A model generated the notes under the pieces. The model did no database searches. It was not told the origin of the DNA and was given only the letters and a program-made list of their open reading frames with translations. 64,000 bases of DNA from Nannocystis bainbridge (GTDB lineage: Bacteria > Myxococcota_A > Polyangia > Nannocystales > Nannocystaceae). The stretch lies in the NCBI RefSeq assembly GCF_028368995.1, contig NZ_JAQNDL010000003.1, forward strand, positions 160,001 through 224,000. The letters are read 5' to 3'. Below, piece after piece: positions 14,141 through 32,083 of this stretch. Numbering within the stretch: the first letter of the stretch is position 1; each line of letters starts with the position of its first letter. Both the position numbers and the translations under genes were made by a program.

Positions 14141-14156
14141 ATGTCCCGAAGGACAT
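14141..14156. repeat. Palindrome ATGTCC-CGAA-GGACAT
   Basis: Same motif as at 13485, 28349, 29784 and 48871, just downstream of the radical SAM stop. Confidence 0.75.
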
Positions 14157-14177
14157 CCGCTCGGGCGCAAAGCCCAA

Positions 14178-15347
14178 TCAACCGAGCCCGGGCGGCAGCT
14201 CGCCCGACCACAGCGGCACCCCGCGCTCGTGCAGCGCCGCCGTCAACGCCGCCGCCTGCTCGCGCTGCCAATCCAGGCTGCCGGCGGCCGCCCAGCGCGG
14301 CTCGGCGAACTCCTGCTCTGCGCCCTCGACCCCGTGGAGCACGTCGACCCGCACCGACCCCGCGCATTCGGCCAGCGCGTCGGCCAGCGGCGCGATCGGC
14401 CCCGGCAGCAGCGGCTGCACGATCGCAAACGTGCGCAGCCCCGCCGCCTTGCACGCCTGCAGGGCCGCCAGCCGGGCCGGGATGCTGGCCGCTCGCGGCT
14501 CGAAGTGCCGCCGCGCCTCCTCGTCGATCGTCGGGATCGAGATCCCCGCCCACGCATTGGCGATCGCCGGCAGGACGTCGAGGTCGCGCTCGATCAGCCC
14601 CGAGCGCGTCAACAGCAGCACCCCCGCCTGCCACTGCGCGTCGCGCAGCGCCAGCAGCATGCGCCGCGTCAGCTGCAGCTTGCGCTCGATCGCGTGGTAC
14701 GGGTCGCTGACCACCGCGCAGAACTTGATCGGCGCCGGCGGCGAGGTCATGAGCTCGGCCGCCAGCACCTCGGGCGCGTTGACCCTCACGTCCACGTAGG
14801 AGCCCCACGGCGCCGGCGCCAGCCCCAGCAGCGCCCGCGTCTCGGCCACGTGCGACTGCGCGTAGCAGAACTTGCAGCCGATCAGGCACCCGACATACGG
14901 CGTCACCGTGTAATAGCGGCCGCCCTCGGCCGGCTCGAGCAGGCGCTCGACCGTCACCCCCCGCACGCGCGCGCCGGGCTCTTCACCTGTCTCTTCGGCC
15001 ATCTCGGCGTCGTGGGCCAGGGCCGCCAGCACCGCCTCCTCGCGGACCGCCGCGGCGCTCGCCACCGCCCGGCAGACGGTGACCCCGAGCGCGCGCAGGT
15101 CCGCCGAGACGACCTCGTCGAAGCGGTACGACAGCCCGAGCCGGCGCGTCTGCACCGCGCTGCGGCGGCCCGGGACCAGGCGGGCGACCTCGACGTGGAC
15201 CCGCGTGCCACCTGTCTCGAAGGTCAGGCGCGGCCCGCACTCGGTCGTGACCTCGGCGAGGCGCAGCCCCGGCGCGAGCTCGTCACCGCGAGCGAGCCCG
15301 CCGACGAGCGCGCGCAGGTGGACCTCGAGATCGCGGGCGCCGGGCAT
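14178..15347 (-). CDS. Radical SAM protein, spore photoproduct lyase/Rv2578c-like, with extra N-terminal domain
   Basis: PYVGCLIGCKFCYA (CxxxCxxC), SDPYHAIER..LTR, LLTRS, FEPRA. Confidence 0.88.
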   Translation of the reverse strand: MPGARDLEVHLRALVGGLARGDELAPGLRLAEVTTECGPRLTFETGGTRVHVEVARLVPGRRSAVQTRRLGLSYRFDEVVSADLRALGVTVCRAVASAAAVREEAVLAALAHDAEMAEETGEEPGARVRGVTVERLLEPAEGGRYYTVTPYVGCLIGCKFCYAQSHVAETRALLGLAPAPWGSYVDVRVNAPEVLAAELMTSPPAPIKFCAVVSDPYHAIERKLQLTRRMLLALRDAQWQAGVLLLTRSGLIERDLDVLPAIANAWAGISIPTIDEEARRHFEPRAASIPARLAALQACKAAGLRTFAIVQPLLPGPIAPLADALAECAGSVRVDVLHGVEGAEQEFAEPRWAAAGSLDWQREQAAALTAALHERGVPLWSGELPPGLG

Positions 15348-15466
15348 GCCGCCGTCGCCTATACCATGACATCGAGGCCGCAGCGGGCCAACGCCGGGAC
15401 CCATGACGAGAACGACCTGGCGGCCATGGCCGCCAGGTCGTCCTGGTTGCTCGGTGTTCTACTCGG

Positions 15467-15691: not shown

Positions 15692-16328
15692 TGAAACCTC
15701 CGTTTCGATACTCGCGGGAACGGGCAACATAATCCCGGCGAGCTCCAGATGCGAACAGCGCCAACTCACGGCCGCGCGGCCCCCACGAGCCGGTCCCGCG
15801 GCCCGAGATCGCGCATTGGAGTGTGGCTGGCAGCCCCCTGTGAATCGAGCGAGCTGTTCATATCATCAGTGTGTTCGCCGATTGCGGGCCGAATGATCTG
15901 ACCCGGCAGGTATCACCGCATCGCACATCGCCCGCGGCGGCGAGCGCGCGACCGGCGGAAGCCGCCCATACGTGGTGGCGAGGCCGCAGACCCGCCCCTC
16001 ACGCATGCGGCAGAGCCCGGCAAGCCACGGCAGCGTCGTGTCGCCGTCGCCACTCGCCGCGCCATTAGTCCGGTGCAACAGCAACCATTCATCGCCTGTC
16101 TCTCGGGCCATGTATTGTAAATATCCAGTCCATTGGATGTCGCCATCACTTCGCTTCGCAGTCTCGTGATTCGGCTCCAGTACGCGCTGCGCACCCGCAA
16201 CCCGCCGTCCGCAAACATCACAACCACGTCACGCCCGCGCGGCGCCGCGGTGAACTCCGCCGTGAGGCCGTTTCGCAGCGAAATCGCCAGTTCGCGTGTA
16301 CGCTCGGCCCGCTCCCCCGCGCCTCGCC

Positions 16329-17036
16329 ATGCCCGCCTCGATCCTCGTCGTCGACGATGAGCGCGATCTACGGTCCGCGATCTGTCACGCGCTCACGCGC
16401 GAAGGGTTCCACCCGCGCACGGCCGATACCGGCGCGCAGGGCCTCCTGCTGGCCCGCAGCGAGCCCCTGCCCGATCTCGTGCTGCTCGACCTCGACCTCC
16501 CGGACATGTCGGGCATCGCCGTGTGCCAGGCCCTCCGCGCCGACCCTGTCACGCGCGCGCTGCCAGTGATGATCGTCAGCGCGCGCGCCGAGGAGATCGA
16601 TCGCGTGCTCGGGTTCGAGGTCGGGGCCGACGATTACGTGACCAAGCCGTACAGCCTGCGCGAGCTGGTGCTGCGGATCCGCGCCGTGCTGCGCCGCCAG
16701 GCCCCGGCGCCCGCGGTCACCGAACGGGTCACCTGCGGCCGCGTGCGCGTCGACGCCGGCGCCCAGCGAGTCTGGCTCGACGACCGCGAGCTCTCGCTCA
16801 CCGCCCTGGAGCTGCGGCTCCTGATCCTGCTCGTGACCCGTCAGGGCCGCGTGCACACCCGCGAGGCGCTGCTCGCCGAGGTCTGGGGCCTGTCGCCGCA
16901 CGTCACCACGCGCACCGTCGACACCCACGTGCTGCGCCTGCGCGCCAAGCTGGGCCCGGCCGCCGGGCAGCTGCAGACGCTCCGCGGCGTCGGCTATCGC
17001 TTCGCGCCCGACGACGGCCTCGTCGAGCCGGAGTGA
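16329..17036 (+). CDS. OmpR/PhoB family response regulator (orphan)
   Basis: ILVVDDE, LLDLDLP, GADDYVTKPYS, winged helix RTVDTHVLRLRAKL...TLRGVGY. Confidence 0.95.
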   Translation: MPASILVVDDERDLRSAICHALTREGFHPRTADTGAQGLLLARSEPLPDLVLLDLDLPDMSGIAVCQALRADPVTRALPVMIVSARAEEIDRVLGFEVGADDYVTKPYSLRELVLRIRAVLRRQAPAPAVTERVTCGRVRVDAGAQRVWLDDRELSLTALELRLLILLVTRQGRVHTREALLAEVWGLSPHVTTRTVDTHVLRLRAKLGPAAGQLQTLRGVGYRFAPDDGLVEPE

Positions 17037-17173
17037 TCCCGCAATCGAACCACGCGCCCGGGTCTGCGCCTGAACGTGCAGCCGGGGCGAACCCGGGCGA
17101 GCCGCCGCCCTCGACGCGGCGCGCAGGCAGATCGGCCCGGCCCGCGCCCACGGGTCACGGGCCCGCGGGGCCA

Positions 17174-18031
17174 TCAATGCGTGACGAAGCGATCGCTCTC
17201 GCGCAGGCACGCCTGCAGCGCGTCCTGCAGGTTGCGGTGGCTGAGGAACGGCGAGATGTCGACCCCGAGGTTCGTCATCGTCTGCGCGATCGCGGGGTTG
17301 ACCCCCGACAGCCGCACCTGCCCGCCCAGCAGCCCGACCGCGCGGATGATGCGATACAGCTGCTCGGCCGTGGTCGAGTCGACCGAATCGACGCCGGTCA
17401 TGTCCATGATCGCGTAGCGGGCCCGCAGCCGCACCACCTCGGCCAGCAGCCGGTCCATGATCTCGGACGCCCGCTCGGCATTGACCGCACCGACCAGCGG
17501 CAGCGTGATGATGTTGTCCCACAGCTGAATGATCGGGGTCGAGAGGGCCCGGATCGCCTTTTGCTGGCGGGTGATGAGCTCGAGCTGATCGCGCGCGGTC
17601 TCCTCGGCGAGCTTGAGCGTGGTGATGTCGCGGACCACCCCGATCGCGCGGATCTTGCCCTTGTTGTCGGCGTCGGGCAGCGAATCGCCGAACACCTGCC
17701 ACCAGCGGATCTCGCCCTGGCGGTTGATCACCCGGTACTCGGCGAAGATCGGCTTGCCGGTCATCAGGTGGTCGGCGATCGCTTTCGACGACGTCCCCAC
17801 GTCCTCCGGGTGAATGGCGTCCCACCAGCTGCTGGCGACCTGGGGGAAGCCGCGCTCGGGGTAGCCGAGGAGCTCGGGGAACCGCTCCGAATAATGCACG
17901 GGGATGTTGCGGTGGAACGCCTGCTCGGGATCGACGGCCGGGTACTCCCAGATCCCGTCGCCAGAGACCGCTATCGCCATTGCATATCGTTCGAGAAGAC
18001 GGCGGATCTCCGTCTCGTCGTTCATCATCAT
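17174..18031 (-). CDS. PAS-STAS (RsbR-like) protein
   Basis: PAS: GDGIWE...AIHPED...EYRVINRQGEIRW...GVVRDIT. RsbR STAS: LSTPIIQLWD..LPLVG..DMTGVDSVD..LSGVNPAIAQTM. Confidence 0.92.
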   Translation of the reverse strand: MMMNDETEIRRLLERYAMAIAVSGDGIWEYPAVDPEQAFHRNIPVHYSERFPELLGYPERGFPQVASSWWDAIHPEDVGTSSKAIADHLMTGKPIFAEYRVINRQGEIRWWQVFGDSLPDADNKGKIRAIGVVRDITTLKLAEETARDQLELITRQQKAIRALSTPIIQLWDNIITLPLVGAVNAERASEIMDRLLAEVVRLRARYAIMDMTGVDSVDSTTAEQLYRIIRAVGLLGGQVRLSGVNPAIAQTMTNLGVDISPFLSHRNLQDALQACLRESDRFVTH

Positions 18032-18411
18032 CGGCCCCTGTCCTCCGCGCCTCACCCTATCAGCCGGAGCCGTCGGCGAAAAGCGGCAAAGTTCCCGCCT
18101 GCTTCGTTCCCAACTCTCCACAAATGCATGCAGTGGGCGCGGTTTCGCTCATTCTTAGGCGAGGCCCCGACGACGAGTCGCGCAGCATCGAGCGGCCGCA
18201 GCGCGCCGCCGGGGCGCCTCTGCATCGGTTCCTCCGACCGCGCCGCACACGCCGGCGCAAACTCCGCGACGGGCGCCGATGTGAGTCTCCATTCTCCGGC
18301 TTTTCCGCGCACCCCCCTTCCGCCGCTGTGGTCGGCGTGGCATAGACCCGGGCGAATGGTGGCTGCACGTGGTGTAGCCATTCGGGTGGCCGTCGAGGAC
18401 GGGGGGCCGAC

Positions 18412-19572
18412 ATGATCGAGACCGAAGCGTGGGTGCTCTACGAGCGCTCCGGCGGCAGCGAATCCGCGCTGGATTCCGACGACTTCCGCCGCGAGACGTT
18501 CGCGTTCCCGGGGCCGGCCGGCGACGAATTGCTGGTGGAGCCGCTGTTCGGCAGCTGGGAGGGCAACATGACCCATTCGCTGCAGCGGCGGCCGATCGAC
18601 ATCTGCAAGCAGCGCGGCGAGCGGCGCGTCGTCATCGGCAACGGCAGCGTCCTGCGGGTCCTGCGGGCCGGGGCGGACGTCCGAGGGATCCACGAGGGCG
18701 ACGTGGGGATCCTTCACGGCGGGCATGTGCAGGATGAATTCGGCTACACGGTCCTGGTCCAGGGCTACGACGCGCCAGGCACCGTCGGCGTGCTCGCCAA
18801 GCGGACCAAGATCGCCGCGCGCAACTTCTTGCCGCTGCCGCTCGAATCACACCACCGCCTCGAACAGTGGGCCGCGTTCTCGGTCCGCTACCTGACCGCG
18901 TGGTCGAATTATCACCTCGCCCTCGGCGCCTACCGGCTGCAGGTAAACGAGCCGCTGGACCCCGCCCCCTTCGTGCTCGGCTGGGGCGGCGGCTCGACGC
19001 TCGCCGCCCTCGACCTGGCCCGCCGGGCCGGCTGTCGCGCCGCGATGGTGTCAGGCAGCCCCCAGCGACTCGCCGAGCTGGCCCGCATGGGCATCGTCGG
19101 CATCGACCGCAGGGCCTTCGCCGGGCTCGAATTCGACGAGGGGCGCTATGCGAGCGACCCCGAGTATCACGCGGCCTACCGCGCCGCCGAGAGGGCCTTC
19201 CTCGCGGCCGTGCACGACTGGACCGGCGGCCGCGGCGCGGCGATCGTGTTCGATTACATCGGCGCCCCGGTGTTTCGCGCCAGCGTCAAAGCGCTCGGCC
19301 GCCAGGGCGTGCTGGCGACCGCCGGCTGGCTCCTGGGCATGCAGACGACCGTCAATCGCGCGATCGAGTGCATCGGCCGCCACGTCCACGTGCATTCGCA
19401 TTACATCCGCCGCGCCGACTCGCCGAAGGCGATGCGCTACGCCGAGCGCGAGGGCTGGATGCCGCAGGTGTCGGAGATCTATTCGTGGGAGGAGATCGGC
19501 GGCCTGGCCCGCGCCGCCGCCGCCGGGCGCTTGCGCTCGTACTTCCCGGTCTATCGCGTCAACCCGGTCTGA
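18412..19572 (+). CDS. MDR-superfamily NAD(P)H reductase, resembling PoTeM IkaC/OX4-type enzymes
   Basis: GroES-like N-domain (LLVEPLFGSWEGNMTH...PIDICKQRGE), Rossmann LGWGGGS, VFDYIG. Co-oriented 63 bp upstream of the NRPS-PKS. The IkaC similarity is from memory. Confidence 0.8.
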   Translation: MIETEAWVLYERSGGSESALDSDDFRRETFAFPGPAGDELLVEPLFGSWEGNMTHSLQRRPIDICKQRGERRVVIGNGSVLRVLRAGADVRGIHEGDVGILHGGHVQDEFGYTVLVQGYDAPGTVGVLAKRTKIAARNFLPLPLESHHRLEQWAAFSVRYLTAWSNYHLALGAYRLQVNEPLDPAPFVLGWGGGSTLAALDLARRAGCRAAMVSGSPQRLAELARMGIVGIDRRAFAGLEFDEGRYASDPEYHAAYRAAERAFLAAVHDWTGGRGAAIVFDYIGAPVFRASVKALGRQGVLATAGWLLGMQTTVNRAIECIGRHVHVHSHYIRRADSPKAMRYAEREGWMPQVSEIYSWEEIGGLARAAAAGRLRSYFPVYRVNPV

Positions 19573-19635
19573 CCGGGCCCCGGCGGCGTCCGTGGCGTGG
19601 CCACGGTGCCACGATTGCTGCGAAGGAGTGAGGAC

Positions 19636-22600
19636 ATGAAATCGGGGCTGCCCCTTGAATCGGTAGATCTCGCGGCGGCGCGGCGGGCCGTGATCGACGA
19701 TTGGAACGCCACCGCGATCGATCTCGACGGCGAGCGCTGCCTCCACGCCTGCGTCGCGGCCCAGGTCGCGCGCACCCCCGAGCGAATCGCCGTCGTCGCC
19801 GAGAGCGGCAGCTGGACCTACGCCGAGCTCGATCGCCGCGCCGATGCGATCGCCGCCGAGCTGCAGCGCCGCGGGGCCCGCCGCGGCACGCTCGTCGCAG
19901 TCTGCGCCGACCGCTCGTGCGAGCTGCTCGCGGGCCTGCTCGGCGTGCTCAGGGCAGGTGCCGCCTATGTGCCGCTCGATCCGGAGCACCCGCGCGAGCG
20001 CCTGGAGTTCATGCTCGCCGATTGTGGTGCCCCCCTGGTCCTGGCCCAGCGCCGCCACGCCGCGCTCCTGTCGGCGGCCGCGGCCACGCTCGTCGTCCTG
20101 GACGCATCATTCCCGCCCGCCGGGCCCGTCGCCGCCGAGGTCGGGCCCGACGATCTGATCTACGTCATGTACACCTCGGGCTCGACCGGTCGGCCCAAGG
20201 GCGTGATGAACATTCACCGCGGTGTCGTCAATCGCCTGCTCGACATGCAGCGCACCCTGCCGCTCGGCGCCGACGATCGCGTGCTGCAGAAGACCCCGTG
20301 CGGCTTCGACATCTCGGTCTACGAGCTGTTCTGGCCGCTGCTGGCCGGCGCGACGCTGGTGATGGCCCGCCCTGGCGGCCACCGCGATCCCGCCTACCTC
20401 GTCGAAACGATCGCCAGCCACGCGATCACCACCATTCATTTCGTGCCGCCGATGCTGGCCGCGTTCCTCGAGCAGGACGACCTCGGCCCGTGTCACTCGC
20501 TGCGGCGCGTCCTGTGCACCGGCGACGTGCTCGCGCCCGCGCTCGTCCAGGCCTGCCACGCGCGGCTCGACGTCGAGGTCTACAACCTCTACGGACCCAC
20601 CGAGGCCGCCATCGAGGTCACCGCCCACCGCTGCGAGCGCGACAGCGACACCGCCTCGGTCCCGATCGGCAAGCCGATCGCCAATTGCACGATCTACGTG
20701 CTCGATCCCGCCGGCGAGCCGGTCCCGCCCGGCACCGCGGGAGAGCTCCACATCGGCGGCGTGCAGGTCAGCCGCGGCTATTGGGGTCGCCCTGCCCTCA
20801 CCGCCGAGCGCTTCGTCCCCGATCCATTCACGGCAGCGCCCGCCCGGCGGCTGTATCGCACCGGCGACCTCGCGCGCTGGCGAAGCGACGGCGTGCTCGA
20901 GTTCCTCGGGCGCCTCGACCATCAGGTGAAGATCCGCGGCGTCCGCGTCGAGCCCGGCGAGATCGAGGCGGTCCTGCGCGAGCATTCGCAGGTCCGCGAC
21001 GCCCTGGTCGTCGTGCACGAACAGGCCAGCGAGCGCCGGCTCGTCGCGTATGTCGTGTTCGCCGGCGAATCACCCCACGACCTCGCCGCGCTGCGCGCGA
21101 GCCTGGCGAACCGCCTGCCCGCGGCGATGGTGCCGGCCGCGCTCGTGCCCCTCGCCGCGATCCCGGTGCTCTCGAACGGCAAGATCGATCGCAGCGCCCT
21201 GCCGCGGCCCGAGGCGCAATCACCCGAGCGCGTCGCGCCGCGCGGCCCGATCGAACTGGCGATCGCCGAGCTCTGGCAATCCGTGCTCGGCGCCGGTGAG
21301 TGCGGGGTGAAGGACGAATTCCTGGCGATCGGCGGTCATTCGCTGCACGCGGCCCAGATCGTCGCGCGCATGCGGCGAGCGTTGGGCAGGTCGATCTCGC
21401 TGGCGGAGTTCTTCGCCCACCCGACGATCGCGGGGCAAGCCGCGTTGCTCGCCGAACGCGCGCGCCCGGCCGAGGATGCGATCCCTGCGCTCTCTGCCGA
21501 TTCAGGCCCGCTCTCGTTCGCCGAGGAGCGGCTGTACTTCCTGCACCAGCTCGCGCCGGCCAGCCCCGCCTATCATTGCCCGCACGCGTTTCACATCACC
21601 GGCGAATGCGACGAGGCGCGGCTCGAGGCCGCCCTGCTGGCGCTGGTCGGCCGCCACGACGTCCTGCGCACCCGATACCTCGCCGAGGCCGGCCTCCCGC
21701 GGCGCGCGATCGATCGCCAAGCGCGCCTCGACCTCGCTCGCCGCGACCTGTCCCATCTCGCACCGGAGGCCCGCAGCGAGGTCCTCGCGGCCATGCTCGC
21801 CACCGAGGTCGGCCGGCCCTTCGACCTCGCTGCCGGCCCGCCGCTACGCGCCGGCCTCGTGCGCCTGGACCGCGACGCGCGGGTGCTGTGGCTCGTGCAG
21901 CACCACATCGTCACCGACGGCTGGACCGACGCGCTGCTGCTGCGCGAGCTCGGCCAGCTCTACGAGTTCGGGCAGATCGACGCCGCCCCGTCGTTGAACT
22001 ACGCCGACTACGCCGCGTGGCAGCGTCATGACCGGTCTGACCAGCATCACGCAGCCCTCGCGCGCTGGCAGGCTCGCCTCGCGGGCGCGCCGGCCCTGCT
22101 CACATTGCCGATCGATCGCCCGCGCAGTGATGCCTCGACGGGTCGCGGCGCGCGCGTGACCTTCGCCGTCTCGCCGACGACCCTGGCCCCGCTGCGTCAC
22201 CTGGCCCGGGCCGCGGGCGCCACCCTCGCGCACGCGCTCCTGAGCGTCTTCGTGGCCGTCCTGCGCCGCTTCGCCGATCAGGACGACATGGTCGTCGGCT
22301 TGACCACGGCCGCGCGCGCGCGCGTCGAGCTCGAGGAAGTCGCCGGCTTCTTCGTCAACACCTTGCCGATCCGGCTCGACCTCGCCGACGATCCGACGCT
22401 GCCCACCTTGCTCGCGCGGGTACGCGACGCGGTGCTCGCGGCCCACGCCGACGAAACCGTCCCGTTCGAGCAGATCGTGCGCACCGTGCGAGCCCCGCGC
22501 GACCTCGGCGGTTCACCGCTGGTGCAGGTCGCGTTCGCCCCGCAGCCGCGGATCGACACCAGCCTGCGACTGCGCGGCTGCGCGGTGCGGCCGATCGACC

Positions 22601-25600
22601 TGCACGCCGGCGGCGCCATCTTTGACCTGACCCTGCTCACCCGCGAGACCGAGGACGACGGCCTCGCGGCCGCGCTCGAGTACAGCACCGACCGCTTCGA
22701 TCGCTGGCGCATCGAGCAGCTTGCCCGCGCGATCGAGGTCGTGCTCGCCGAACTCACAGCGCCTCCGGTCCCGATCTCCGAGCTGCCGCTTTTGACGCCA
22801 GTTGAGCAATCACAGCAGTTCGCGCTCGCCTGCGGACCGCCGCAGGACAGCGCGCCGGGCGGGGTGCACGCTCGCTTCGAGGCTCAGGTCGACCACACGC
22901 CCGACGCCGTCGCCCTCGTCGACGGCGACGCGCGCGTGACCTACGCGCAACTGGAGCGCCGCGCCAATCGCCTGTCTCATCATTTGCGCGGGCTCGGGGT
23001 CAGGCGCGGCAGCCTCGTCGGCGTGGTCGCCACGCGCACCGCTGCCACCTTCGTCGCCGTGCTCGCCGTCCTCAAGGCTGGTGGTGCCTACGTCCCGCTC
23101 GATCCGTCCTACCCCGCCCAGCGGCTCGCGCACATCCTCGAGGACGCCGGCCTGCGCTGGATCGTCGCCGAGCCCGACGCCGCAGCCCTCCTCCCGCCGC
23201 ACACGGCCCGACTCGTCGAGCCCGACGCACCCTCGCCCGACGCACACCGGCTCGAGCCTTCGGACCTCGGCCCCGACGACCTCGCCTACGTGCTCTACAC
23301 CTCGGGCTCGACCGGCCGACCGAAGGGCGTGGCGATGCCGCACGGGCCGCTGCACAACCTCGTGGGTTGGCATCTGCGCGACCCTCGGCTCGGGCGTCCG
23401 GCGCGGACCCTGCAATTTGCCTCGCTCAACTTCGACGTCTCGGCGCAGGAGTTTCTCACCACCTGGGCCACCGGCGGCGCGCTGATCCTCGTGGCCGAGG
23501 ACGCCCGTCGAGACGCGCGGGCGCTGCTGGCCCTGCTCGCGCGCCAGGCCGTCGAGCGGTTGTTCCTCCCCTTCGTGTTCTTGCAGCACCTCGCCGAGGG
23601 GCCCCCGGCGCCGTCTCTCGTCGATGTCATCACCGCCGGCGAACAGCTCAAGCTCTCGCCGGCGCTCCGCGAGTGGTTCGGGCGCATGCCGGCGTGCGCG
23701 CTCCACAATCACTACGGCCCGACCGAGGCCCACGTCGTCACCGCGCACGTCCTGCTCGAGTCACGCGAATCGTGGCCGAGCTTGCCGCCGATCGGCGCGC
23801 CGATCTCCAATACCCGGATCTACCTGCTCGACGCCCATCAACGCCCGGTCCCGCCCGGCGTCACCGGCGAGCTCCACATCGCTGGCGCCGCCCTGGCCCG
23901 CGGCTACCTCGGCCAGCCCGCCCACACCGCCGAGCGCTTCGTGCCCGATCCATGGTGTCCCGGCCAGAGGATGTACCGCACCGGCGACCTCGCCCGCCGC
24001 GCGCCGGACGGCGACCTCGAATACGTCGGTCGTCGCGATTCGCAGGTCAAGCTGCGCGGCGTCCGGGTCGAGCTTGGCGAGATCGAGGCCGTCCTGACCG
24101 AGGATCTCGCCGTGACCGCCGCCGCGGCCGTCGTGCGCGAAGATGTCCCCGGGGACAGGCGGCTCGTCGCTTACGTCGCCGCCAGCGGGCCGCTCGACCT
24201 CGACTCGCTGCGCGCGCGCCTGCGGGCCCGCCTGCCCGCGCCGATGCTGCCCGCCGAGCTGGTCCCGCTGCCCCGCTTGCCGCTGCTGCCGAGCGGCAAG
24301 CTCGATCGCCATGCCCTGCCGCCCCCTCCGCAGCGCTCCGCCGCGCCGCCGCGCGACACGCCTGCTTCGACGCTCGAGCAGCAGATCGCCGCGAGCTGGC
24401 GCGAGCTGCTCCAGCTCGACCACGTCGACCTCGACGATCGCTTCTTCGACCTCGGTGGTCACTCGCTGCTGCTCGCCCAGGTCCGCGCTCGCCTCGAGCG
24501 CACCACCGGGCGCACGATCGCCCTCGTCGAGCTGTTCCGCCACCCGACGATCCGCGAGCTCGCGCGTCACCTCGGCGGCGCCAATGACAGCCGTGATTCA
24601 CCAGCCTCGCCGCCGCCACCGCTCACCGCGCCGACCGGCGACGCGCGGGCGATCGCCATCATCGGCATGGCCGGTCGCTTCCCCGGCGCCGCCAGCGTCG
24701 ACGCGCTGTGGGCCGCCCTCGTGGCCGGGCGCGAGCTCATCACCTTCTCCACCCGCGAGCAGCTCGTGGCCGCCGGCGTCGATCCGGCCCTTATCGACGC
24801 CCCGCGGTTCGTGCCCGCCATCGGCGTCATGCCCGACGCCATGTGCTTCGACGCCGCCTTCTTCGGCTACGGCCCGCGCGAGGCCCGGCTCCTCGATCCG
24901 CAGCAGCGCGTCCTGCTCGAGGTCGCCTGGGCCGCGCTCGAACACGCCGGCCACGCCCCCCGCGGCAGCGAGCGCCCGGTCGGCGTGTTCGCCGGCTGCG
25001 AGGTCCCGCGCCACTGGCTCGAGCGAATCGGTGCACCGGGCGGCCCGCTCAGCATCGAGGAGTACGAGGTCGGCTTCGCCAACATGAACGACACCCTCGC
25101 CACCCGGGTCGCCTACGAGCTCGGCCTGCGCGGCCCCGCCTTCACCGTCCAGACCGCCTGCTCGACCTCGCTGGTCGCGGTCCACCTCGCCTGTCAGAGC
25201 CTGCTCACCGGCGAATGCGAGCTGGCGCTCGCCGGCGGCGCCGTCGTCATGCCGCCCGACCGGCTCGGTCACGTCTCCGAGGGCGGCTCGGTGGTCGCGC
25301 CCGACGGCCGCTGCCGGCCGTTCGACGCCGACGCCCAGGGCATCGTCGGCGGCAACGGGGTCGGCGTCGTCGTGCTGAAGCGCCTCGCCGACGCTCTGGC
25401 CGACGGTGACAGCATTCACGCAGTGATTCATGCCACCGCGATCAACAACGACGGCGCGCGCAAGGTCGGCTTCACCGCCCCGAGCGTGCCGGGGCAGATC
25501 GAGGTGATCGAGCGCGCGCTGGCCCTCGCCGCCGTCGACCCGGTTCGGATCGGCCTCGTCGAGGCTCACGGCACCGCCACGCGCCTCGGCGACCCGATCG

Positions 25601-28347
25601 AGGTCGCCGCGCTCACCCAGGCCTGGCGCCGGTCGACCGCCGCGCGGGGTTACTGCGCGCTCGGCTCGATCAAGGGCAACATCGGCCACCTCGGGGCCGC
25701 CGCCGGCATCGCCGGGCTGATCAAGGCCGCGCTGGCGCTGGCGCGCGAGGCCATCCCGCCGACCCTGCACTTCCGCGCCGCCAACCCCGAGCTCGCGCTC
25801 GACACCAGCCCGTTCTTCGTCAACAGCGATACAATAACATGGCCCAAAAGCCATGTTCCACGATTCGCCGCCGTCAGCGCGTTCGGGGTCGGCGGCACCA
25901 ACGCCCACGCAATCCTCGGCGAGGCCCCCGCGATCGCCCCGGGCGAACCGTCGCGGCCGGTGCAGTTGCTGGTGCTGTCGGCGCAATCCCCCGCCTCGCT
26001 GGCCGAGGGCGCCACGCGGCTCGCCGACGCCCTGAGCGGTCCCGACGCGCCCGCGCTGGCCGATGTCGCCCACACCCTCGCCCGCGGCCGCACGCCCATG
26101 CGCCATCGTCGGGCCGTCGTCGCCCGCGACGCCGCCGCGGCCGCCGTCGCCCTGCAGACCGGCGATCGGGCCCGGGTGGTCGACGGCCTCGCCGGCGACC
26201 GACCGCCGCGCATCGCCTTCATGTTCCCCGGCGGCGGCACCCAGACCGTCGGCATGGGCCGCGAGCTCTATACCGCCGACCCGTCGTTCCGCGCCGAGTT
26301 CGACGCCGCCGCCGATCGCTTCGCCGCCGAGCTCGAGCTCGACGTCCGCGCCCTGCTGTTCACCGCCGATCCCGACGAAGCTGCCCGCGGATTGCTGCGC
26401 CCGACGCGATTTTTGCCCGCGATCTTCTGCTGTGAATACGCGCTGGCCCGGCGGCTCATCGCGCTCGGCGTCGTACCGGCCGCGGTCACCGGTCACAGCC
26501 TCGGCGAATACACCGCGGCCGCGATCGCCGGGGTCCTCTCGCTCGCCGACGCGGCGCGCCTGCTGGCCATCCGCGCCCGGCTGCACGAATCGATCGAGCT
26601 GCCCGCCGGCCTGCTCGTCGTCAGCCTGTCCGAGGCCGCCCTGACGCGACGGCTCACGCCCGACCTAGACATCGCCGCCGTCAACGCCGAGGACAGCTGC
26701 GTGGTCGCCGGCCACCTCGCCGCAATTGAATCCTTCGAGGCCGAGCTCGCCCGCGACAGCGTCGAATGCCGGCGCCTGCCGGTCTCGGGCGCCTCGCATT
26801 GCGCGCTGGTCGATCCGCTGCTGGCCCCCCTGGCCGCCTGCGCCCGCGAGCTCGACCTCGCCGCGCCGACCATTCCGCTCGTCTCCAACGTCACTGGCGA
26901 TTGGCTCGGCGACGACGAGGCCCGCGATCCGCAGCACTGGTGCCGTCACCTGCGCGGCGCCGTGCGCTTCGCCGACGGCCTCGGCCGCTTGCTCGCCGAT
27001 CGCGACCTGCTGCTCGTCGAGGTCGGCCCCGGCCGCACCCTCGCCGGGCTCGCGCGCCGCCACCCCGACGCTGGCGGCCGCCCGATCGTCGCCACCATGG
27101 CCGCGCGCGGCGGCGGCCGCACCGACCTCGAGGCGTTCACCCACGCGCTCGCCCAGCTGTGGTGCCGCGGCGTCGACCTGCGCTGGGACGCGCTGTTCGC
27201 CGGCGAACGCCGCCGCCGCGTGCCGCTGCCGACCTACGCGTTCGCGCGGGTCCACCACGAGCACCCCGTCGCCCCGGCCCGGCGCGGCCGAGACGTCGCA
27301 GCATTCCCGATCACCGATGCGCCCGTCGCTCCTGCCATCATTCCCGCCGACGCCCTCGCCGACCCGATCGCGCGGACCCTCGCCGACGTGTTCGCCGAGG
27401 TCCTCGGCGTGCCCGCGCCGGGCCTCGCCGACAATTTCTTCGACCTCGGCGGCTCCTCATTTTTGGCCCTGCGCGTGCGCGTCCGCGTCGAGGAGCTGCT
27501 CGCGGTCAAGCTGCCGGTGCATGCATTCGTCGAGCACCCCACCCTCGCCGGCCTCGCCGACCTCGTGCGCGCCCGCCTGCCCACGGTCGCCGCGCCCGTC
27601 CCCGCGCAAGCGCGGCTCACCGTCGCATTGCGCCCGGGCCCTGGTCGGCGCCTGTTCCTGTTCCAGCCGATCGGCGGCACCGTCTTCACCTACCTGCCGC
27701 TGGCGCGGCGCCTCGAGCCCTCGCTTCACGTCATCGGCGTGCGCGCCTCCGGCATGGAACCCGGGGAGCCCGTCTTCGATCGCCTGGACCCGCTGCTCGA
27801 TCGTCTGCTCGACGAAGTCCGCGCCTGCCAACCGCACGGCCCCTACCTGCTCGGCGGCCACTCGGCGGGCGGTGTGCTCGCCTTCGAGCTGGCGCGGCGG
27901 TTGCTCGCGGCCGGCGAGCGCGTCGAGAATATCGTCATGCTCGACACCGCCTCGCTCGCGCTGGTGCGGCGGCTGGTCATCACCAGCGACGAGGACGTGT
28001 TCGAGATCGCGGGGCGCATGCGCAGCGACTCCTCCCACGCTTACGAACAATTCGCGGCGACCTTGCGCGACGACCCCAGCTTCCGCACCCTCGTGCGCAC
28101 CACCTGGAGCGCCCTCGCCGGCTGCGAACCGGGTCCGCTCGCCGCCGAGGTCCTCTACGTCAAGGCCCGCGTGCAGCCGGACGACGACCGCCACGCCGAC
28201 CACGCGTGGATGGCTCTCGTCGAAGGAGCGTTCGCGCGTATCACCGTCGACGCCGATCATTTCTCGATGATGGACGAGCCCGCCGTGGCCCACGTCGCCG
28301 CCGCCATGAACGCCGCGCTCGCCGCCCCGCCTCGCTCGACGCCATGA
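19636..28347 (+). CDS. Hybrid NRPS-PKS: A-T-C-A-T-KS-AT-ACP-TE
   Basis: Two YTSGSTGRPKG A domains, GGHSL carriers, C motif HHIVTDG, KS TACSTS/HGT/NIGH, AT GHSLG, ACP GGSS, TE GHSAG...DHF. RBS AAGGAG before ATG 19636. Confidence 0.97.
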   Translation: MKSGLPLESVDLAAARRAVIDDWNATAIDLDGERCLHACVAAQVARTPERIAVVAESGSWTYAELDRRADAIAAELQRRGARRGTLVAVCADRSCELLAGLLGVLRAGAAYVPLDPEHPRERLEFMLADCGAPLVLAQRRHAALLSAAAATLVVLDASFPPAGPVAAEVGPDDLIYVMYTSGSTGRPKGVMNIHRGVVNRLLDMQRTLPLGADDRVLQKTPCGFDISVYELFWPLLAGATLVMARPGGHRDPAYLVETIASHAITTIHFVPPMLAAFLEQDDLGPCHSLRRVLCTGDVLAPALVQACHARLDVEVYNLYGPTEAAIEVTAHRCERDSDTASVPIGKPIANCTIYVLDPAGEPVPPGTAGELHIGGVQVSRGYWGRPALTAERFVPDPFTAAPARRLYRTGDLARWRSDGVLEFLGRLDHQVKIRGVRVEPGEIEAVLREHSQVRDALVVVHEQASERRLVAYVVFAGESPHDLAALRASLANRLPAAMVPAALVPLAAIPVLSNGKIDRSALPRPEAQSPERVAPRGPIELAIAELWQSVLGAGECGVKDEFLAIGGHSLHAAQIVARMRRALGRSISLAEFFAHPTIAGQAALLAERARPAEDAIPALSADSGPLSFAEERLYFLHQLAPASPAYHCPHAFHITGECDEARLEAALLALVGRHDVLRTRYLAEAGLPRRAIDRQARLDLARRDLSHLAPEARSEVLAAMLATEVGRPFDLAAGPPLRAGLVRLDRDARVLWLVQHHIVTDGWTDALLLRELGQLYEFGQIDAAPSLNYADYAAWQRHDRSDQHHAALARWQARLAGAPALLTLPIDRPRSDASTGRGARVTFAVSPTTLAPLRHLARAAGATLAHALLSVFVAVLRRFADQDDMVVGLTTAARARVELEEVAGFFVNTLPIRLDLADDPTLPTLLARVRDAVLAAHADETVPFEQIVRTVRAPRDLGGSPLVQVAFAPQPRIDTSLRLRGCAVRPIDLHAGGAIFDLTLLTRETEDDGLAAALEYSTDRFDRWRIEQLARAIEVVLAELTAPPVPISELPLLTPVEQSQQFALACGPPQDSAPGGVHARFEAQVDHTPDAVALVDGDARVTYAQLERRANRLSHHLRGLGVRRGSLVGVVATRTAATFVAVLAVLKAGGAYVPLDPSYPAQRLAHILEDAGLRWIVAEPDAAALLPPHTARLVEPDAPSPDAHRLEPSDLGPDDLAYVLYTSGSTGRPKGVAMPHGPLHNLVGWHLRDPRLGRPARTLQFASLNFDVSAQEFLTTWATGGALILVAEDARRDARALLALLARQAVERLFLPFVFLQHLAEGPPAPSLVDVITAGEQLKLSPALREWFGRMPACALHNHYGPTEAHVVTAHVLLESRESWPSLPPIGAPISNTRIYLLDAHQRPVPPGVTGELHIAGAALARGYLGQPAHTAERFVPDPWCPGQRMYRTGDLARRAPDGDLEYVGRRDSQVKLRGVRVELGEIEAVLTEDLAVTAAAAVVREDVPGDRRLVAYVAASGPLDLDSLRARLRARLPAPMLPAELVPLPRLPLLPSGKLDRHALPPPPQRSAAPPRDTPASTLEQQIAASWRELLQLDHVDLDDRFFDLGGHSLLLAQVRARLERTTGRTIALVELFRHPTIRELARHLGGANDSRDSPASPPPPLTAPTGDARAIAIIGMAGRFPGAASVDALWAALVAGRELITFSTREQLVAAGVDPALIDAPRFVPAIGVMPDAMCFDAAFFGYGPREARLLDPQQRVLLEVAWAALEHAGHAPRGSERPVGVFAGCEVPRHWLERIGAPGGPLSIEEYEVGFANMNDTLATRVAYELGLRGPAFTVQTACSTSLVAVHLACQSLLTGECELALAGGAVVMPPDRLGHVSEGGSVVAPDGRCRPFDADAQGIVGGNGVGVVVLKRLADALADGDSIHAVIHATAINNDGARKVGFTAPSVPGQIEVIERALALAAVDPVRIGLVEAHGTATRLGDPIEVAALTQAWRRSTAARGYCALGSIKGNIGHLGAAAGIAGLIKAALALAREAIPPTLHFRAANPELALDTSPFFVNSDTITWPKSHVPRFAAVSAFGVGGTNAHAILGEAPAIAPGEPSRPVQLLVLSAQSPASLAEGATRLADALSGPDAPALADVAHTLARGRTPMRHRRAVVARDAAAAAVALQTGDRARVVDGLAGDRPPRIAFMFPGGGTQTVGMGRELYTADPSFRAEFDAAADRFAAELELDVRALLFTADPDEAARGLLRPTRFLPAIFCCEYALARRLIALGVVPAAVTGHSLGEYTAAAIAGVLSLADAARLLAIRARLHESIELPAGLLVVSLSEAALTRRLTPDLDIAAVNAEDSCVVAGHLAAIESFEAELARDSVECRRLPVSGASHCALVDPLLAPLAACARELDLAAPTIPLVSNVTGDWLGDDEARDPQHWCRHLRGAVRFADGLGRLLADRDLLLVEVGPGRTLAGLARRHPDAGGRPIVATMAARGGGRTDLEAFTHALAQLWCRGVDLRWDALFAGERRRRVPLPTYAFARVHHEHPVAPARRGRDVAAFPITDAPVAPAIIPADALADPIARTLADVFAEVLGVPAPGLADNFFDLGGSSFLALRVRVRVEELLAVKLPVHAFVEHPTLAGLADLVRARLPTVAAPVPAQARLTVALRPGPGRRLFLFQPIGGTVFTYLPLARRLEPSLHVIGVRASGMEPGEPVFDRLDPLLDRLLDEVRACQPHGPYLLGGHSAGGVLAFELARRLLAAGERVENIVMLDTASLALVRRLVITSDEDVFEIAGRMRSDSSHAYEQFAATLRDDPSFRTLVRTTWSALAGCEPGPLAAEVLYVKARVQPDDDRHADHAWMALVEGAFARITVDADHFSMMDEPAVAHVAAAMNAALAAPPRSTP

Positions 28348-28348: not shown

Positions 28349-28408
28349 ATGTCTCAAAGGACAGGACGATCGCACAGGCCCCGCACGATCGCCTGTCCCT
28401 CGGGACAT
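28349..28408. repeat. ~60-bp inverted-repeat element built from two ATGTCY-N4-GGACA palindromes, between convergent genes
   Basis: ATGTCTCAAAGGACAGG...CGATCG...CGATCG...CCTGTCCCTCGGGACAT. The arms match 14/17. Confidence 0.75.
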
Positions 28409-28420: not shown

Positions 28421-29533
28421 TCAGGCCGCGCCCTTGACCGGCGTCGTCGGGGCAGCCGCGGGGATCCCATAATACAGCCGCGCCGCCAGCCCGCCTTCCT
28501 CGGCGACGCGCTCGGCCGCCGCGCCGGCCACAAGCTCGATGCGCGCCCCCGCGGCCATCGCCAGCTCGGGCAGCCGCACCCGCAGGTCGACCTCGGCCAG
28601 CGGCCACGGCACCAGCAACAGCTCGACCTGCTTGTTCTTCAGGCAGTCGAGCACCGTGGCGATGCCGAGCGCCCCGCGGCCGCCGGCCTTGGCCAGGTCG
28701 ACCACCTCGTCCACCAGCGCGCTCTCGTACGCGCGCTCGTGCTCGAGCGCGTGCGGCATCAGGTGGTCCCACGTCGCCTGGTCGGTCAGGTGCAGCGGCG
28801 TCGGCACGATCGCGATCACGGCCTTGCGGACCGTGTCGTGCATGAGGCCCTCGACCGCCCGCGCCGCGCCATCCATCCCTGCGAGCACGATCCGCTTCGC
28901 ACCTGACTCTTCGAGCAGGTTCGCGCATTGCTCGGCGACCTGGCGGTAGAACCGGCGCGCATGATCCTCGATCGTCGCCTCGAAGGCGTCGCGGTTGCTG
29001 CCGCCCTGGGTGTAACCGCCCTCGCCGCGGCCGGTCGCCGGCAGGTATTTCGGCGGGAAGTCGTACTCGCGGACCTCGTTGTAGCGGGTCCCGCCGAGCC
29101 CGGCGCGGCCGAGCCGGGCGACGAAGAAGCGGACCTTCTCCGAGTCGACAAGGGCCACCACGTACGGCTCGTACTCGTCGAGCAGCCACAGCAGCGAGGC
29201 CACCGCCGGCCGCCCGAAGTGGACCTCCGGCGCCACGATCGGCACCTGCAGTCTCAGCACCTCCTCGCCGGTCGGGGTGAAGAACGCCGCCACCGCCTTG
29301 CACTCCGGCCGCAGCGTGGCGAAGAACTGTTCGGCCCGCGCCAGCAGCTCCGGCAGCGCCGGGTCGTCGGAACTCGCCTTCAGGTCGCGCAGCGAGTTCT
29401 TGACCAAAATCCGCCAGCCGGGCGTGCGGCCCTGATTCTCGAGCAGCGACGGGTCGACCTGGGCGTAGATCGAGAGCGTCTTGTCGGCCCCCGGTTGGCT
29501 GAGCACGCGATGGACATCGGTAATTTTGAGCAT
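28421..29533 (-). CDS. Bacterial aeRF1-like (baeRF/VLRF1-related) protein
   Basis: TLSIYAQVDP, HFGRPAVASLLWLLDEYEPYVVALVD, GGSNRDAF loop, RIVLAG, and an L7Ae-like C-domain (GALGIATVLDCLKNKQVELLLV...GGLAARLYY). Confidence 0.8.
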   Translation of the reverse strand: MLKITDVHRVLSQPGADKTLSIYAQVDPSLLENQGRTPGWRILVKNSLRDLKASSDDPALPELLARAEQFFATLRPECKAVAAFFTPTGEEVLRLQVPIVAPEVHFGRPAVASLLWLLDEYEPYVVALVDSEKVRFFVARLGRAGLGGTRYNEVREYDFPPKYLPATGRGEGGYTQGGSNRDAFEATIEDHARRFYRQVAEQCANLLEESGAKRIVLAGMDGAARAVEGLMHDTVRKAVIAIVPTPLHLTDQATWDHLMPHALEHERAYESALVDEVVDLAKAGGRGALGIATVLDCLKNKQVELLLVPWPLAEVDLRVRLPELAMAAGARIELVAGAAAERVAEEGGLAARLYYGIPAAAPTTPVKGAA

Positions 29534-29783
29534 GCAGACCTCGTTGCCGCGAAGTCTGGGCAATTGCCGCGCTCGTGCAAACGCCGGACGAGCTCTGCCG
29601 CCGCGATCGCACCGCCGCTCGCCAATGGTGGCAGGCGCAGCCGCGACGCCGGCGCCGGGGCGACGGGTGCGCTCGGTGCATGCCTCGGGATCGCCGGCGG
29701 CCGCCCGCTCTCACGAGCGCTGATATTCCGGACTACGCATTCGCCGATCGACGCGAGCGACCAGCGAGCCCGACCTTTGGCGA

Positions 29784-30649: not shown

Positions 30650-32083
30650 TCACGGCCCGCGCCGGTCCGCGTTCGCCGGCGGGAACGTCGCCAGCGACGC
30701 CGGCCGCGCCGCCTGCAGCCGGACCGCCGTCGCCTCGGCCGCCCGCAGCACGCGGAGCAGGTTGCGCCCGGCGAGCTTCTCCAGCTCCGCGTCGGTCCAC
30801 CCGCGACGGGCCAGCTCGGCCAGCAAATGCGGGTACTTCGAGACGTCCTCGAGGCCGACCGGCGCCGCCGACATGCCGTCGAAATCGCCGCCCAGCCCGA
30901 CGTGGTCGACGCCCGCCACCCGCCGCACGTGCTCGACGTGATCGGCGACCTGCGCCAGCGTCGCCCGCGGCTGCGGCTCGGCGTCGATCTCGGCCAGACG
31001 CAGGGCCCGGGCCGCGAGATCGCCGATCTTGGCCGCCTCGGCCCGCGCCTTCCGCCGGGCTTCGCGGGCCTCCCCGGCCGCCTGCGACACGTAGGCCGGC
31101 AGGAAGGTGACCATCACGATGCCACCATTGTCGGGGATCCGCCGCAACACGTCGTCAGGCACGTTGCGCGGCGTGTCGGCGATCGCCCGCGCCGACGAGT
31201 GGGAGAAGATGAGCGGCGCCTCGCTGACCCGCAGCGCGTCGTCCATGGTCGCCGGCGATACGTGCGAGAGGTCGACCAGCATGCCGAGCCGGTTCATCTC
31301 GCGCACGACCTCCTCGCCGAACGGGGTCAGGCCGCCGTGACGCGGCGGCAGCACGGCGCAGTCGGCCCAGTCGGTATGCACATTGTGGGTCAGCGTCAGG
31401 TAACGGACCCCGAGCGCGTGATAGGCCCGTAGCGTCCCCAGCGAATTGACGAGCGTGTGCCCGCCCTCGGCCCCGAGCAGCGACGCCACCCGCCCGGCGC
31501 GGAACGCCTGCTCGACCTCGTCGGCGGTCAGCGCCAGCGCGAGATCGTCAGGATAATGCGCGATCATCCGCCGGGCCAGATCGATCTGCTCGAGCTGCAG
31601 GCGCACGAGATCGCCGGCAGGCCGATCACCGGGCACGTACACCGACCAGAACTGCGCGCCGACCCGCCCCGCGCGCAGCCGCGGCAGATCGGTGTGACCG
31701 GGAGTGGCCGCGCGCAGGTCGTAGGCCGCCACGTCGCCGGGCGCCTGCTTGTATTCGCGGATCGTCCACGGCAAATCGTTGTGGCCGTCGATCAGCGGCA
31801 CGCGGGCGAGCACCGCGTGGGCTCGTCCCAGCGGATCGTCCGCCAGCGCCGGATCGTTCGCCGACGCCGAATCAGCCGAATCCGATGAATCGCGGGTGGG
31901 GTCCGGCGCCGCCGCGCGCGGCGATTCAGGCCCCGCGATCGCGGTCGCCAGCCCAGCGCCCGGCAATGGCTCGGACACAGGCGCGGCGCGTCGCTCGGGC
32001 TCGGCCGGCGACGCGCACGCGAATGCGAAGAGAGCGAAGGTCGTCGCGCACGCTGAGAGAGACGGCCGCCGGCTCGTGGTCAC
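30650..32083 (-). CDS. Membrane dipeptidase (peptidase M19) lipoprotein
   Basis: Lipobox FAFAC, IDGHNDLPW, GAQFWSVY, EGGH, DLSHVS, FSHSS, GGDFDG. Confidence 0.95.
   Translation of the reverse strand: MTTSRRPSLSACATTFALFAFACASPAEPERRAAPVSEPLPGAGLATAIAGPESPRAAAPDPTRDSSDSADSASANDPALADDPLGRAHAVLARVPLIDGHNDLPWTIREYKQAPGDVAAYDLRAATPGHTDLPRLRAGRVGAQFWSVYVPGDRPAGDLVRLQLEQIDLARRMIAHYPDDLALALTADEVEQAFRAGRVASLLGAEGGHTLVNSLGTLRAYHALGVRYLTLTHNVHTDWADCAVLPPRHGGLTPFGEEVVREMNRLGMLVDLSHVSPATMDDALRVSEAPLIFSHSSARAIADTPRNVPDDVLRRIPDNGGIVMVTFLPAYVSQAAGEAREARRKARAEAAKIGDLAARALRLAEIDAEPQPRATLAQVADHVEHVRRVAGVDHVGLGGDFDGMSAAPVGLEDVSKYPHLLAELARRGWTDAELEKLAGRNLLRVLRAAEATAVRLQAARPASLATFPPANADRRGP

Follow-up and report, generated by a model that had tools for sequence, protein, structure and literature searches.

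Organization of the two-gene locus

We analyzed a 64,000-nucleotide (nt) stretch of the Nannocystis bainbridge genome (positions 160,001 to 224,000 of contig NZ_JAQNDL010000003.1), which is referred to as the window and has a GC content of about 71%, with a focus on a gene for a medium-chain dehydrogenase/reductase (MDR) protein and an adjoining gene for a hybrid of nonribosomal peptide synthetase (NRPS) and polyketide synthase (PKS); all coordinates are given as window positions. The MDR gene (18412–19572, + strand) encodes 386 amino acids (aa), and the open reading frame (ORF) of the synthetase (19597–28347, +) spans 2916 aa when read from a GTG codon. Both exhibited a codon-position GC pattern typical of real genes, with a GC content at the third codon position (GC3) of 0.90. 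Its start is probably the ATG at 19636 (gene at 19636–28347) rather than the GTG at 19597, because an AAGGAG ribosome-binding site lies 8–13 nt upstream of this ATG and the identical database protein has 2903 aa. The two genes are co-oriented, with 24–63 nt between them depending on the start chosen, and are flanked by a divergent gene upstream (17174–18121, −) and a convergent gene downstream (28421–29563, −). The same pair recurs in 4 of 80 homologue loci, as described below, and the co-oriented two-gene unit described in a first-pass annotation of this DNA was thereby supported. The pair is a real, intact, and conserved two-gene operon of a Nannocystis genome. A 630-aa ORF (16523–18415) overlapping the MDR start was also weighed as a third gene, and was rejected because its frame failed the GC3 test and two real genes fill that stretch.

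The Pfam matches of the synthetase comprised two AMP-binding, three PP-binding, and one Condensation domain, the N- and C-terminal ketosynthase (KS) domains, Acyl_transf_1, and Thioesterase, from which the order of adenylation (A), carrier (T), condensation (C), KS, acyltransferase (AT), acyl carrier protein (ACP), and thioesterase (TE) domains in the one protein was read as A-T-C-A-T-KS-AT-ACP-TE. Neither a ketoreductase (KR) domain nor an N-terminal (starter) C domain was matched by Pfam in the synthetase, the first A domain beginning at residue 54. In a regular-expression check, A3, A4, A5, A7, A8, and A10 were each found intact and in single copy in each A domain, and the three carrier serine motifs, the HHxxxDG of the C domain, the Cys and both His motifs of the KS domain, the GHSLG plus Arg of the AT domain, and the GHSAGG of the TE domain were also intact. 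Along the + strand, the first A domain (A1; 19756–21201) is followed by the first carrier domain (approximately 21259–21471; GGHSL at residue 579), the C domain (21502–22815; HHIVTDG at residue 769), the second A domain (A2; approximately 22894–24321), the second carrier domain (T2; 24379–24573; PP-binding match at residues 1595–1659), the KS domain (24646–25773), the AT domain (26218–27042; specificity motif GASH), the ACP domain (approximately 27364–27576; GGSSF at residue 2618), and the TE domain (27646–28305; GHSAGG at residue 2754).

The specificity codes, read from motif anchors, were DIYHLTLIEK for A1, which is Ser-like, and DVQFIAHVVK for A2, which is that for Pro. The code positions follow the GrsA numbering. 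Support for them came from the orthologue of Polyangium aurulentum, in which these columns read DVWHVSLID?, one residue off the quoted Ser code over the nine positions read. The best single-domain PDB matches of A1 were Txo2, ClbH (first A domain), Txo1, FscH, and EntF. Both codes are identical to those given in the first-pass annotation, and the domain order described there, with no KR domain, no starter C domain, and all motifs intact, was borne out as well.

Full-length orthologues of the synthetase were found in N. exedens (78% identity), Nannocystis sp. ILAH1 (77%), and Nannocystis sp. SCPEA4 (71%), and that of P. aurulentum, which carries a methyltransferase insert, was 58% identical over 83% of the query. 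The A2 code was DVQFVAHVVK in all four, so that the window protein and the orthologues together read DVQF(I/V)AHVVK. The A1 codes grade from DVWHVSLID? (Polyangium) through DVYHLSFIDK and DIYHLSFIEK to the DIYHLTLIEK of the window, those of all four orthologues being Ser-like, and the AT motif GASH was common to the window protein and the four orthologues. When the ACP-TE portion was used for the search, the four orthologues came first (54–78% identity), followed by NRPS-PKS proteins of Sorangium, Polyangiaceae, Chondromyces, and Nannocystis (40–48%).

The orthologues of Nannocystis sp. ILAH1/RBIL2 and SCPEA4 were also found to have about 230 extra N-terminal residues (L001:11160–12020; P0005 and P0006, residues 1–270). 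This extension was without a Pfam match and resembled the C-terminal half of a condensation domain, with 37% identity to the N-terminus of the P. aurulentum protein and 26–38% to internal C domains, and the window protein and that of N. exedens lack this half-domain remnant through a clean deletion. Such a distribution among the sequences suggests that a starter C domain was present ancestrally, degenerated, and later disappeared.

Relatives of the synthetase and of the MDR protein

CorA, the coralinone synthetase of Corallococcus exiguus SDU70, is described as having the organization A-T-C-A-T-KS-AT-ACP-TE, and CorA alone makes a dipeptidyl β-keto acid, which gives 5-methylpyrazinones through decarboxylation, cyclization via the free amine, and oxidation (PMC10979478); a commentary (PMC10979472) and a cryo-EM paper on CorA (PMC13691573) agree with this description. 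Methylmalonyl-CoA fed to CorA led to a 5-ethyl product, both malonyl-CoA and methylmalonyl-CoA being accepted (PMC10979478, PMC13691573). In the published cor work, coralinone-type pyrazinones are aggregation signals in myxobacteria, and their C-5 group has been treated as methyl or ethyl from common extender units. The Methods of PMC10979478 give a search rule for cor-like clusters, which asks for two A domains, at most one C domain, and one each of KS, AT, and TE domains, and the paper counts 110 such clusters, mostly in Corallococcus and then in Sorangium, Chondromyces, Nannocystis, and Polyangium.

The window synthetase conforms to this rule in its Pfam domains and their order, and it shares with CorA the cor-like traits of a free N-terminal amine, as there is no starter C domain, and of a retained β-keto group, as there is no KR domain. 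Both synthetases are, furthermore, encoded by one gene of roughly 9 kb. They differ in that CorA uses Leu/Met/Phe and Ile/Val, whereas the window synthetase has the Ser-like and Pro codes; in the AT motif, which is SGFH in CorA and GASH here; in the host, which is Corallococcus for CorA and Nannocystis here; and in the gene for a putative IcuL-type carboxylase, described below, that adjoins the window synthetase, unlike in the CorA cluster. By its architecture, the window operon is a variant of the known cor-like family, distinguished by its predicted Ser-Pro specificity, its GASH AT, and its putative private IcuL-type carboxylase. The first-pass annotation had recognized this architecture in no characterized cluster, a claim that was wrong because CorA has exactly this domain order; a match of this kind comes close to the condition under which that annotation itself would have given up its reading. 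What it observed was sound, but the novelty of the architecture did not hold, and the role assigned to the MDR protein was not supported.

Other free-amine synthetases are also comparable. The dimodular NRPSs of the AusA/PznA type, which make phevalin, tyrvalin, and other 5-unsubstituted pyrazinones, likewise form a free-amine dipeptide that cyclizes on its C-terminal carbonyl (PMC10979478), and AusA was among the best full-length NCBIfam matches of the window synthetase, at 902 bits versus a cut-off of 2500. However, these enzymes release an aldehyde via a reductase (R) domain, whereas release here would proceed via the PKS module and TE domain as a ketone, so that C-5 would be substituted.

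Regarding the MDR protein, Pfam gave a weak ADH_zinc_N match (1.4e-10), and the best NCBIfam match was TIGR01751, for crotonyl-CoA carboxylase/reductase (CCR), at 57.5 bits versus a cut-off of 378.55. A PDB sequence search yielded CCRs in 10 of 12 matches, the top seven included, with the best E of about 1e-7, and a protein-atlas search yielded generic zinc-dehydrogenase names only. The nearest named relative was P0151 of Sorangium cellulosum So ceGT47 (55% identity, E 2e-155), for which the name TgaD is that of UniRef, and its gene in So ceGT47 stands directly after a gene ending C-A-T-KS-AT-DH-KR-ACP-TE (DH, dehydratase). A wide protein search found MDR orthologues in Nannocystis at 88% identity. 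Of 1.84 billion cluster representatives scanned exhaustively with HMMER, 257 matched at E ≤ 1e-3, and 69 of them did so at E ≤ 1e-30; by this measure, the MDR family is small and sharply bounded.

IcuL, TgaD, and Leu10, which belong to icumazole, thuggacin, and leupyrrin, respectively, are described as a family of about 380 aa that stands apart from the canonical CCRs of about 450 aa, with an identity of about 18% to these versus 48.6–52.6% within the family, IcuL being 48.6% identical to TgaD and 52.6% to Leu10 (icumazole preprint). They reductively carboxylate 2-enoyl N-acetylcysteamine thioesters in vitro with a narrow chain-length preference, being strict for C6–C8, and such enzymes also give plain reduced products beside the carboxylated ones (icumazole preprint). 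With its 386 aa, the window MDR is similar in length, likewise only remote from canonical CCRs, and likewise encoded beside a PKS module, but its partner is a single-module cor-like NRPS-PKS, whereas IcuL, TgaD, and Leu10 serve long assembly lines. The length, the 55% identity to the TgaD-named P0151, the remote CCR matches, and the small, bounded family are the reasons for which we file it under the IcuL/TgaD/Leu10-type family, which it fits as far as sequence comparison can tell. The first-pass annotation had called it an IkaC-like reductase acting on the product, a reading for which no support was found: its nearest named relative is TgaD, its best PDB and NCBIfam matches are CCRs, and the family carboxylates enoyl thioesters in vitro. 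In clusters of the IkaC type, which are for polycyclic tetramate macrolactams, the reductase is accompanied by an IkaA-type iterative PKS-NRPS and an IkaB-type FAD oxidoreductase. In terms of gene context, no gene of either type was found near the MDR gene among the window ORFs scanned.

To describe the genomic context of the MDR family, we used the 80 homologue loci obtained from one genome scan with a 15-sequence alignment. The four loci in which the MDR gene is followed by A-T-C-A-T-KS-AT-ACP(-TE) were those of Nannocystis sp. RBIL2 (L001), N. exedens DSM 71 (L002), N. pusilla Na p29 (L043), and a Polyangiaceae metagenome-assembled genome (MAG; L003), the last with an MDR identity of 63% and other specificity codes in its NRPS. 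In L043, the radical-SAM, regulator, PAS-STAS, and NRPS-PKS genes all aligned as short, frame-shifted high-scoring segment pairs (HSPs), which suggests assembly indels, not gene decay. KS/AT matches were present within the flank in 34 of the 80 loci, only adenylation- or condensation-type matches in 9 (in four of which it was a single 28%-identical match), and flanks too short to judge in 22. In a FastTree phylogeny of 78 rows, from which L043, L051, and L074 were left out for a best HSP of less than 331 residues, the window MDR was placed with a support of 96 in a clade with those of RBIL2, N. exedens, the Polyangiaceae MAG, and So ceGT47 (L005), and all five members of the clade adjoin PKS genes.

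The ATs encoded beside the MDR homologues were mostly non-canonical: of 35 ATs at 29 loci, 32 carried neither HAFH nor YASH, two carried HAFH, and one carried YASH. The other motifs were GASH, GAGH, GAAH, RAAH, RAGH, VAAH, GGGH, and the like, and 28 of the 29 loci had at least one AT that was neither HAFH nor YASH. Regarding the meaning of such motifs, the Phe of the SGFH of CorA is reported to exclude ethylmalonyl-CoA (PMC13691573), and the window AT has Ser at that position. For polyoxypeptin, furthermore, a TgaD homologue is paired with a non-canonical AT with VPGH for a branched alkylmalonyl unit (polyoxypeptin paper). Because 34 of the 80 loci lie near KS/AT genes and 32 of the 35 neighboring ATs are non-canonical, the IcuL-type carboxylase family could be a candidate genome-mining marker for unusual extender units.

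MDR genes of the IcuL/TgaD type were also observed in Myxococcota, Acidobacteriota, Bacteroidota, Planctomycetota, Pseudomonas agarici, a Streptomyces, and Herpetosiphon. A second recurrent arrangement, found in Enhygromyxa, a Nannocystaceae isolate, Myxococcus, and Corallococcus (L039, L041, L066, L067, and L071), places an A domain and a KS-AT with RAAH after the MDR gene, and looks like another conserved hybrid cluster that may use the same kind of carboxylase.

Proposed pathway and its alternatives

With moderate confidence, we propose that the operon is for a two-gene variant of the cor pathway, in which Ser, Pro, and an alkylmalonyl unit supplied by the MDR protein would be assembled into a pyrrolidine-fused 5-alkylpyrazinone. 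Following the published mechanism of CorA, A1 would load a Ser-like residue whose amine stays free, A2 would load Pro, the C domain would make Ser-Pro-S-T2, and the KS domain would condense Ser-Pro with one extender unit on the ACP. The β-keto group should stay, there being no KR domain, and the TE domain would hydrolyze the thioester to a β-keto acid, the decarboxylation of which would give a Ser-Pro ketone. The Ser amine could then close a six-membered imine on the ketone, and oxidation or, more speculatively, water loss from the Ser side chain would lead to the 2(1H)-pyrazinone, with N1 and C6 bridged by the proline ring as a 7,8-dihydro-6H-pyrrolo[1,2-a]pyrazin-4-one. As for the MDR protein, its family and its context point to a reductive carboxylase, not a tailoring reductase, which would convert a 2-enoyl thioester from fatty-acid metabolism into the alkylmalonyl extender for the GASH AT. 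C-5 would, as a result, carry CH2-R in place of the methyl group in the case of CorA, the chain length of R being beyond what can be read from sequence. The first-pass annotation had suggested an indolizidine-type or other small bicyclic alkaloid; the latter is compatible with the predicted pyrrolo[1,2-a]pyrazinone, but no route to an indolizidine was seen, because Ser would acylate the Pro nitrogen and the chain could close to a six-membered imine as in CorA.

Several points weigh against this proposal. The kinship with CorA is based on the architecture and on the host genera listed in PMC10979478, and a Corallococcus CorA-type protein was not among the best 120 matches of the full-length or ACP-TE search. 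The cor clusters are described as having a co-clustered DegP/Q-type protease gene, corB, "especially" in Corallococcus (PMC10979478), and a DegP-like corB with a PDZ domain was not found among the 38 window ORFs scanned. In 15 of the 80 MDR loci, no PKS or NRPS was present within 5–10 kb, even though at least 5 kb was covered on each side. The contrast in AT motifs is a rough one, because the loci are interrelated and the comparison set, in which about 50 of 79 ATs were HAFH by hand count among NRPS-PKS proteins fetched by likeness to the window enzyme with the MDR disregarded, was not matched. GASH differs from the methylmalonyl motif YASH in the first residue alone, and because it keeps the Ser of YASH, methylmalonyl-CoA is also a possible extender. 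In an alignment of the MDR protein with PDB 3krt, moreover, one stretch reads Ala-Pro in the MDR at what we take to be the CO2-binding Phe-Glu of canonical CCRs, and carboxylation by the MDR protein is for this reason inferred from its relatives. No source of an enoyl thioester is encoded in the cluster, so that the precursor would have to come from general fatty-acid metabolism. Finally, Xaa-Pro thioesters tend to be lost from the enzyme as diketopiperazines.

It is possible, but in our view unlikely, that the synthetase uses malonyl-CoA and that the MDR protein acts as a tailoring reductase on the released bicyclic product, giving a saturated alkaloid through reduction of, for example, its C=N or C=C bond. 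The lack of conservation of the presumed Phe-Glu would be in line with this role, as would the presumed cotranscription of the MDR gene with the synthetase gene only 24–63 nt away and the plain reduced products that IcuL-type enzymes also form in vitro. However, the substrates of the nearest characterized relatives are enoyl thioesters rather than heterocycles, and the occurrence of the MDR family beside many unrelated PKS types with non-canonical ATs fits the supply of building blocks better.

It is quite unlikely, furthermore, that a cor-like pathway simply takes methylmalonyl-CoA or malonyl-CoA from primary metabolism to give a 5-ethyl or 5-methyl product, with the MDR protein having a side role, such as raising the extender pool, or none. 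The Ser that GASH has in common with YASH and the acceptance of both of these extenders by CorA itself (PMC10979478, PMC13691573) would allow this, and the C-5 acetyl group of nannozinone B, a Nannocystis pyrazinone taken up below, would fit an oxidized ethyl group (PMC10979478 for the acetyl group). Against such a marginal role speak the conservation of the MDR-synthetase pairing in three other Nannocystis genomes and in the Polyangiaceae MAG with its 63% MDR identity, and the reported strictness of TgaD, IcuL, and Leu10 for C6–C8 enoyl chains (icumazole preprint).

The chance that the main products are not pyrazinones but either a linear Ser-Pro peptidyl ketone, serving as a signal or as a ligand of proteases, or cyclo(Ser-Pro) as a shunt diketopiperazine seems slim. 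A tert-butoxycarbonyl (Boc)-protected linear cor dipeptide ketone was as active a morphogen as coralinone (PMC10979478), but CorA gives pyrazinones in vivo as well as in vitro (PMC10979478, PMC13691573). The ready cyclization of Xaa-Pro thioesters would favor the shunt, against which the conserved and intact PKS module and TE domain argue for extension.

The first-pass annotation had also drawn a parallel to the Ser/Thr-Pro pyrrolizidine synthetases for pyrrolizixenamide, legonmycin, and brabantamide. Those of the PxaA/LgnD type are organized as C-A-T-C-A-T-TE, begin with an acylating starter C domain, and work with a partner monooxygenase, and the parallel stood for the order of a Ser-like residue and then Pro but not for the starter C domain, the T-TE end, or the monooxygenase. 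It is very improbable that Ser is dehydrated on line to dehydroalanine or a pyruvyl group and that the chain cyclizes to an indolizidine- or pyrrolizidine-type skeleton, for which the shared amino acid order would speak, because the window synthetase has no starter C domain and has a PKS module between T2 and the TE domain, no monooxygenase gene is adjacent (the nearest FAD-binding gene being 7.6 kb away on the other strand), and a free-amine dehydroalanine would be expected to hydrolyze to pyruvyl and lose the nitrogen for ring closure.

Nannozinones, upstream region, and neighboring genes

The proposed pyrrolidine-fused 5-alkylpyrazinone brings to mind the nannozinones of Nannocystis pusilla, which are described as pyrazinones with a C-5 substituent of enigmatic enzymology, the substituent being acetyl in nannozinone B (PMC10979478), and which are classed in reviews as pyrrolopyrazinones. 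They are thus pyrrolo-fused pyrazinones from the same genus as the window operon, and the orthologous locus L043 is that of an N. pusilla strain, Na p29. Nannozinone A is said to be a dihydropyrrolo derivative. We regard the link to nannozinones as a lead, for which a paralogue of the synthetase is an equally open candidate. This paralogue, C-A-T-C-A-T-KS-AT-ACP-TE with a starter C domain, is present in Nannocystis genomes, including on the contig of the window (P0090, P0093, P0246, and P0247), and is 46% identical. Its first A domain is Pro-like, with the code DLYITSHVVK or DVYITTHVVK, and is nearest to the Pro domain of the window protein. The second A domain reads DAFVVAAVCK or DAFCVAAVCK, and the AT carries TASH.

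It is rather doubtful, yet worth stating, that the pair could be a route to nannozinone-type C-5-substituted pyrazinones and could contain the first private IcuL-type carboxylase to set the C-5 chain of a cor-family signal. If so, one gene would tune the "word" of a myxobacterial morphogen. A Pro position together with an enzyme that makes its own extender would predict a bicyclic, longer-chain member of the coralinone signal family, and if water were lost from the Ser side chain, a redox-neutral change, this could take the place of the oxidation required for CorA products. With only two genes, the operon might also serve as a compact model for studying the part played by AT choice and extender supply in diversifying pyrazinone signals. 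It represents no new class of chemistry or enzymology. Regarding precedent, the main texts of PMC10979478 and PMC13691573 do not contain "crotonyl," "CCR," or "proline," with Figure 7 and the supplements of PMC10979478 possibly depicting this cluster already, and, within the main texts of the two CorA papers, ethylmalonyl-CoA appears only in PMC13691573, as a substrate rejected by CorA. Literature searches on pyrazinone with crotonyl-CoA carboxylase gave one general review only, those on Nannocystis pyrazinones gave nothing on this locus, and those on IcuL with Leu10 gave the icumazole preprint only, Table S3 of which may show this MDR.

The divergent intergenic region upstream of the MDR gene (18122–18411), which presumably holds a promoter, had a mean column identity of 86% over about 220 nt among four Nannocystis genomes, and no sigma-70-like site was found in it by the promoter scan. 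It contains an inverted repeat (18356–18391) 20–55 nt upstream of the MDR start, both arms of which are conserved in the four genomes. As RNA, this repeat folded no better than shuffles (z = −1.62), and because the RNA fold is not significant, it could be a putative protein-binding site. At the other end, the 73-nt gap between the convergent genes contains terminator-like hairpins (28365–28407), for which only the position is suggestive, since the two terminator-like sites in the scanned region versus 2.6 expected from shuffles are not above chance. Rfam and tRNA scans gave no matches.

The divergent upstream gene (17174–18121, −) encodes a PAS and STAS protein (Pfam PAS_3 and STAS), possibly regulatory, and is syntenic in RBIL2, N. 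exedens, and N. pusilla at 85–91% identity, a 36% homologue being present just upstream of the MDR gene in the Polyangiaceae MAG. An OmpR-type response regulator gene (16296–17036, +; Pfam Response_reg and Trans_reg_C), possibly associated with the pair, is syntenic upstream of the pair in the same three Nannocystis loci at 87–89% identity. Further upstream, a radical-SAM gene and a small gene of unknown function (13536–15404, −) are also syntenic there at 86–91% identity, and because they are about 0.9 kb from the response regulator gene in the window versus about 6.7 kb in the other genomes, an insertion or deletion between them is indicated.

The ORF scan of the window also showed a bacterial alpha-2-macroglobulin of 2025 aa (717–6794, −) and an M19 membrane dipeptidase (30650–32083, −), and the convergent downstream gene (28421–29563, −) encodes a baeRF family-10 protein. 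The M19 dipeptidase was weighed as an analogue of CorB and rejected, since it belongs to a different family. The only trypsin-like candidate in the window was an ORF with a weak, partial Trypsin match (35431–36843), which overlaps an FG-GAP repeat ORF, and there may be a frameshift or miscall in the lower-GC stretch around it. At 47236–50656, an ORF for a PLP-dependent decarboxylase-like protein (−) overlaps that for a copper monooxygenase-like protein (+), and a LanC-like protein is encoded at 60108–61322.

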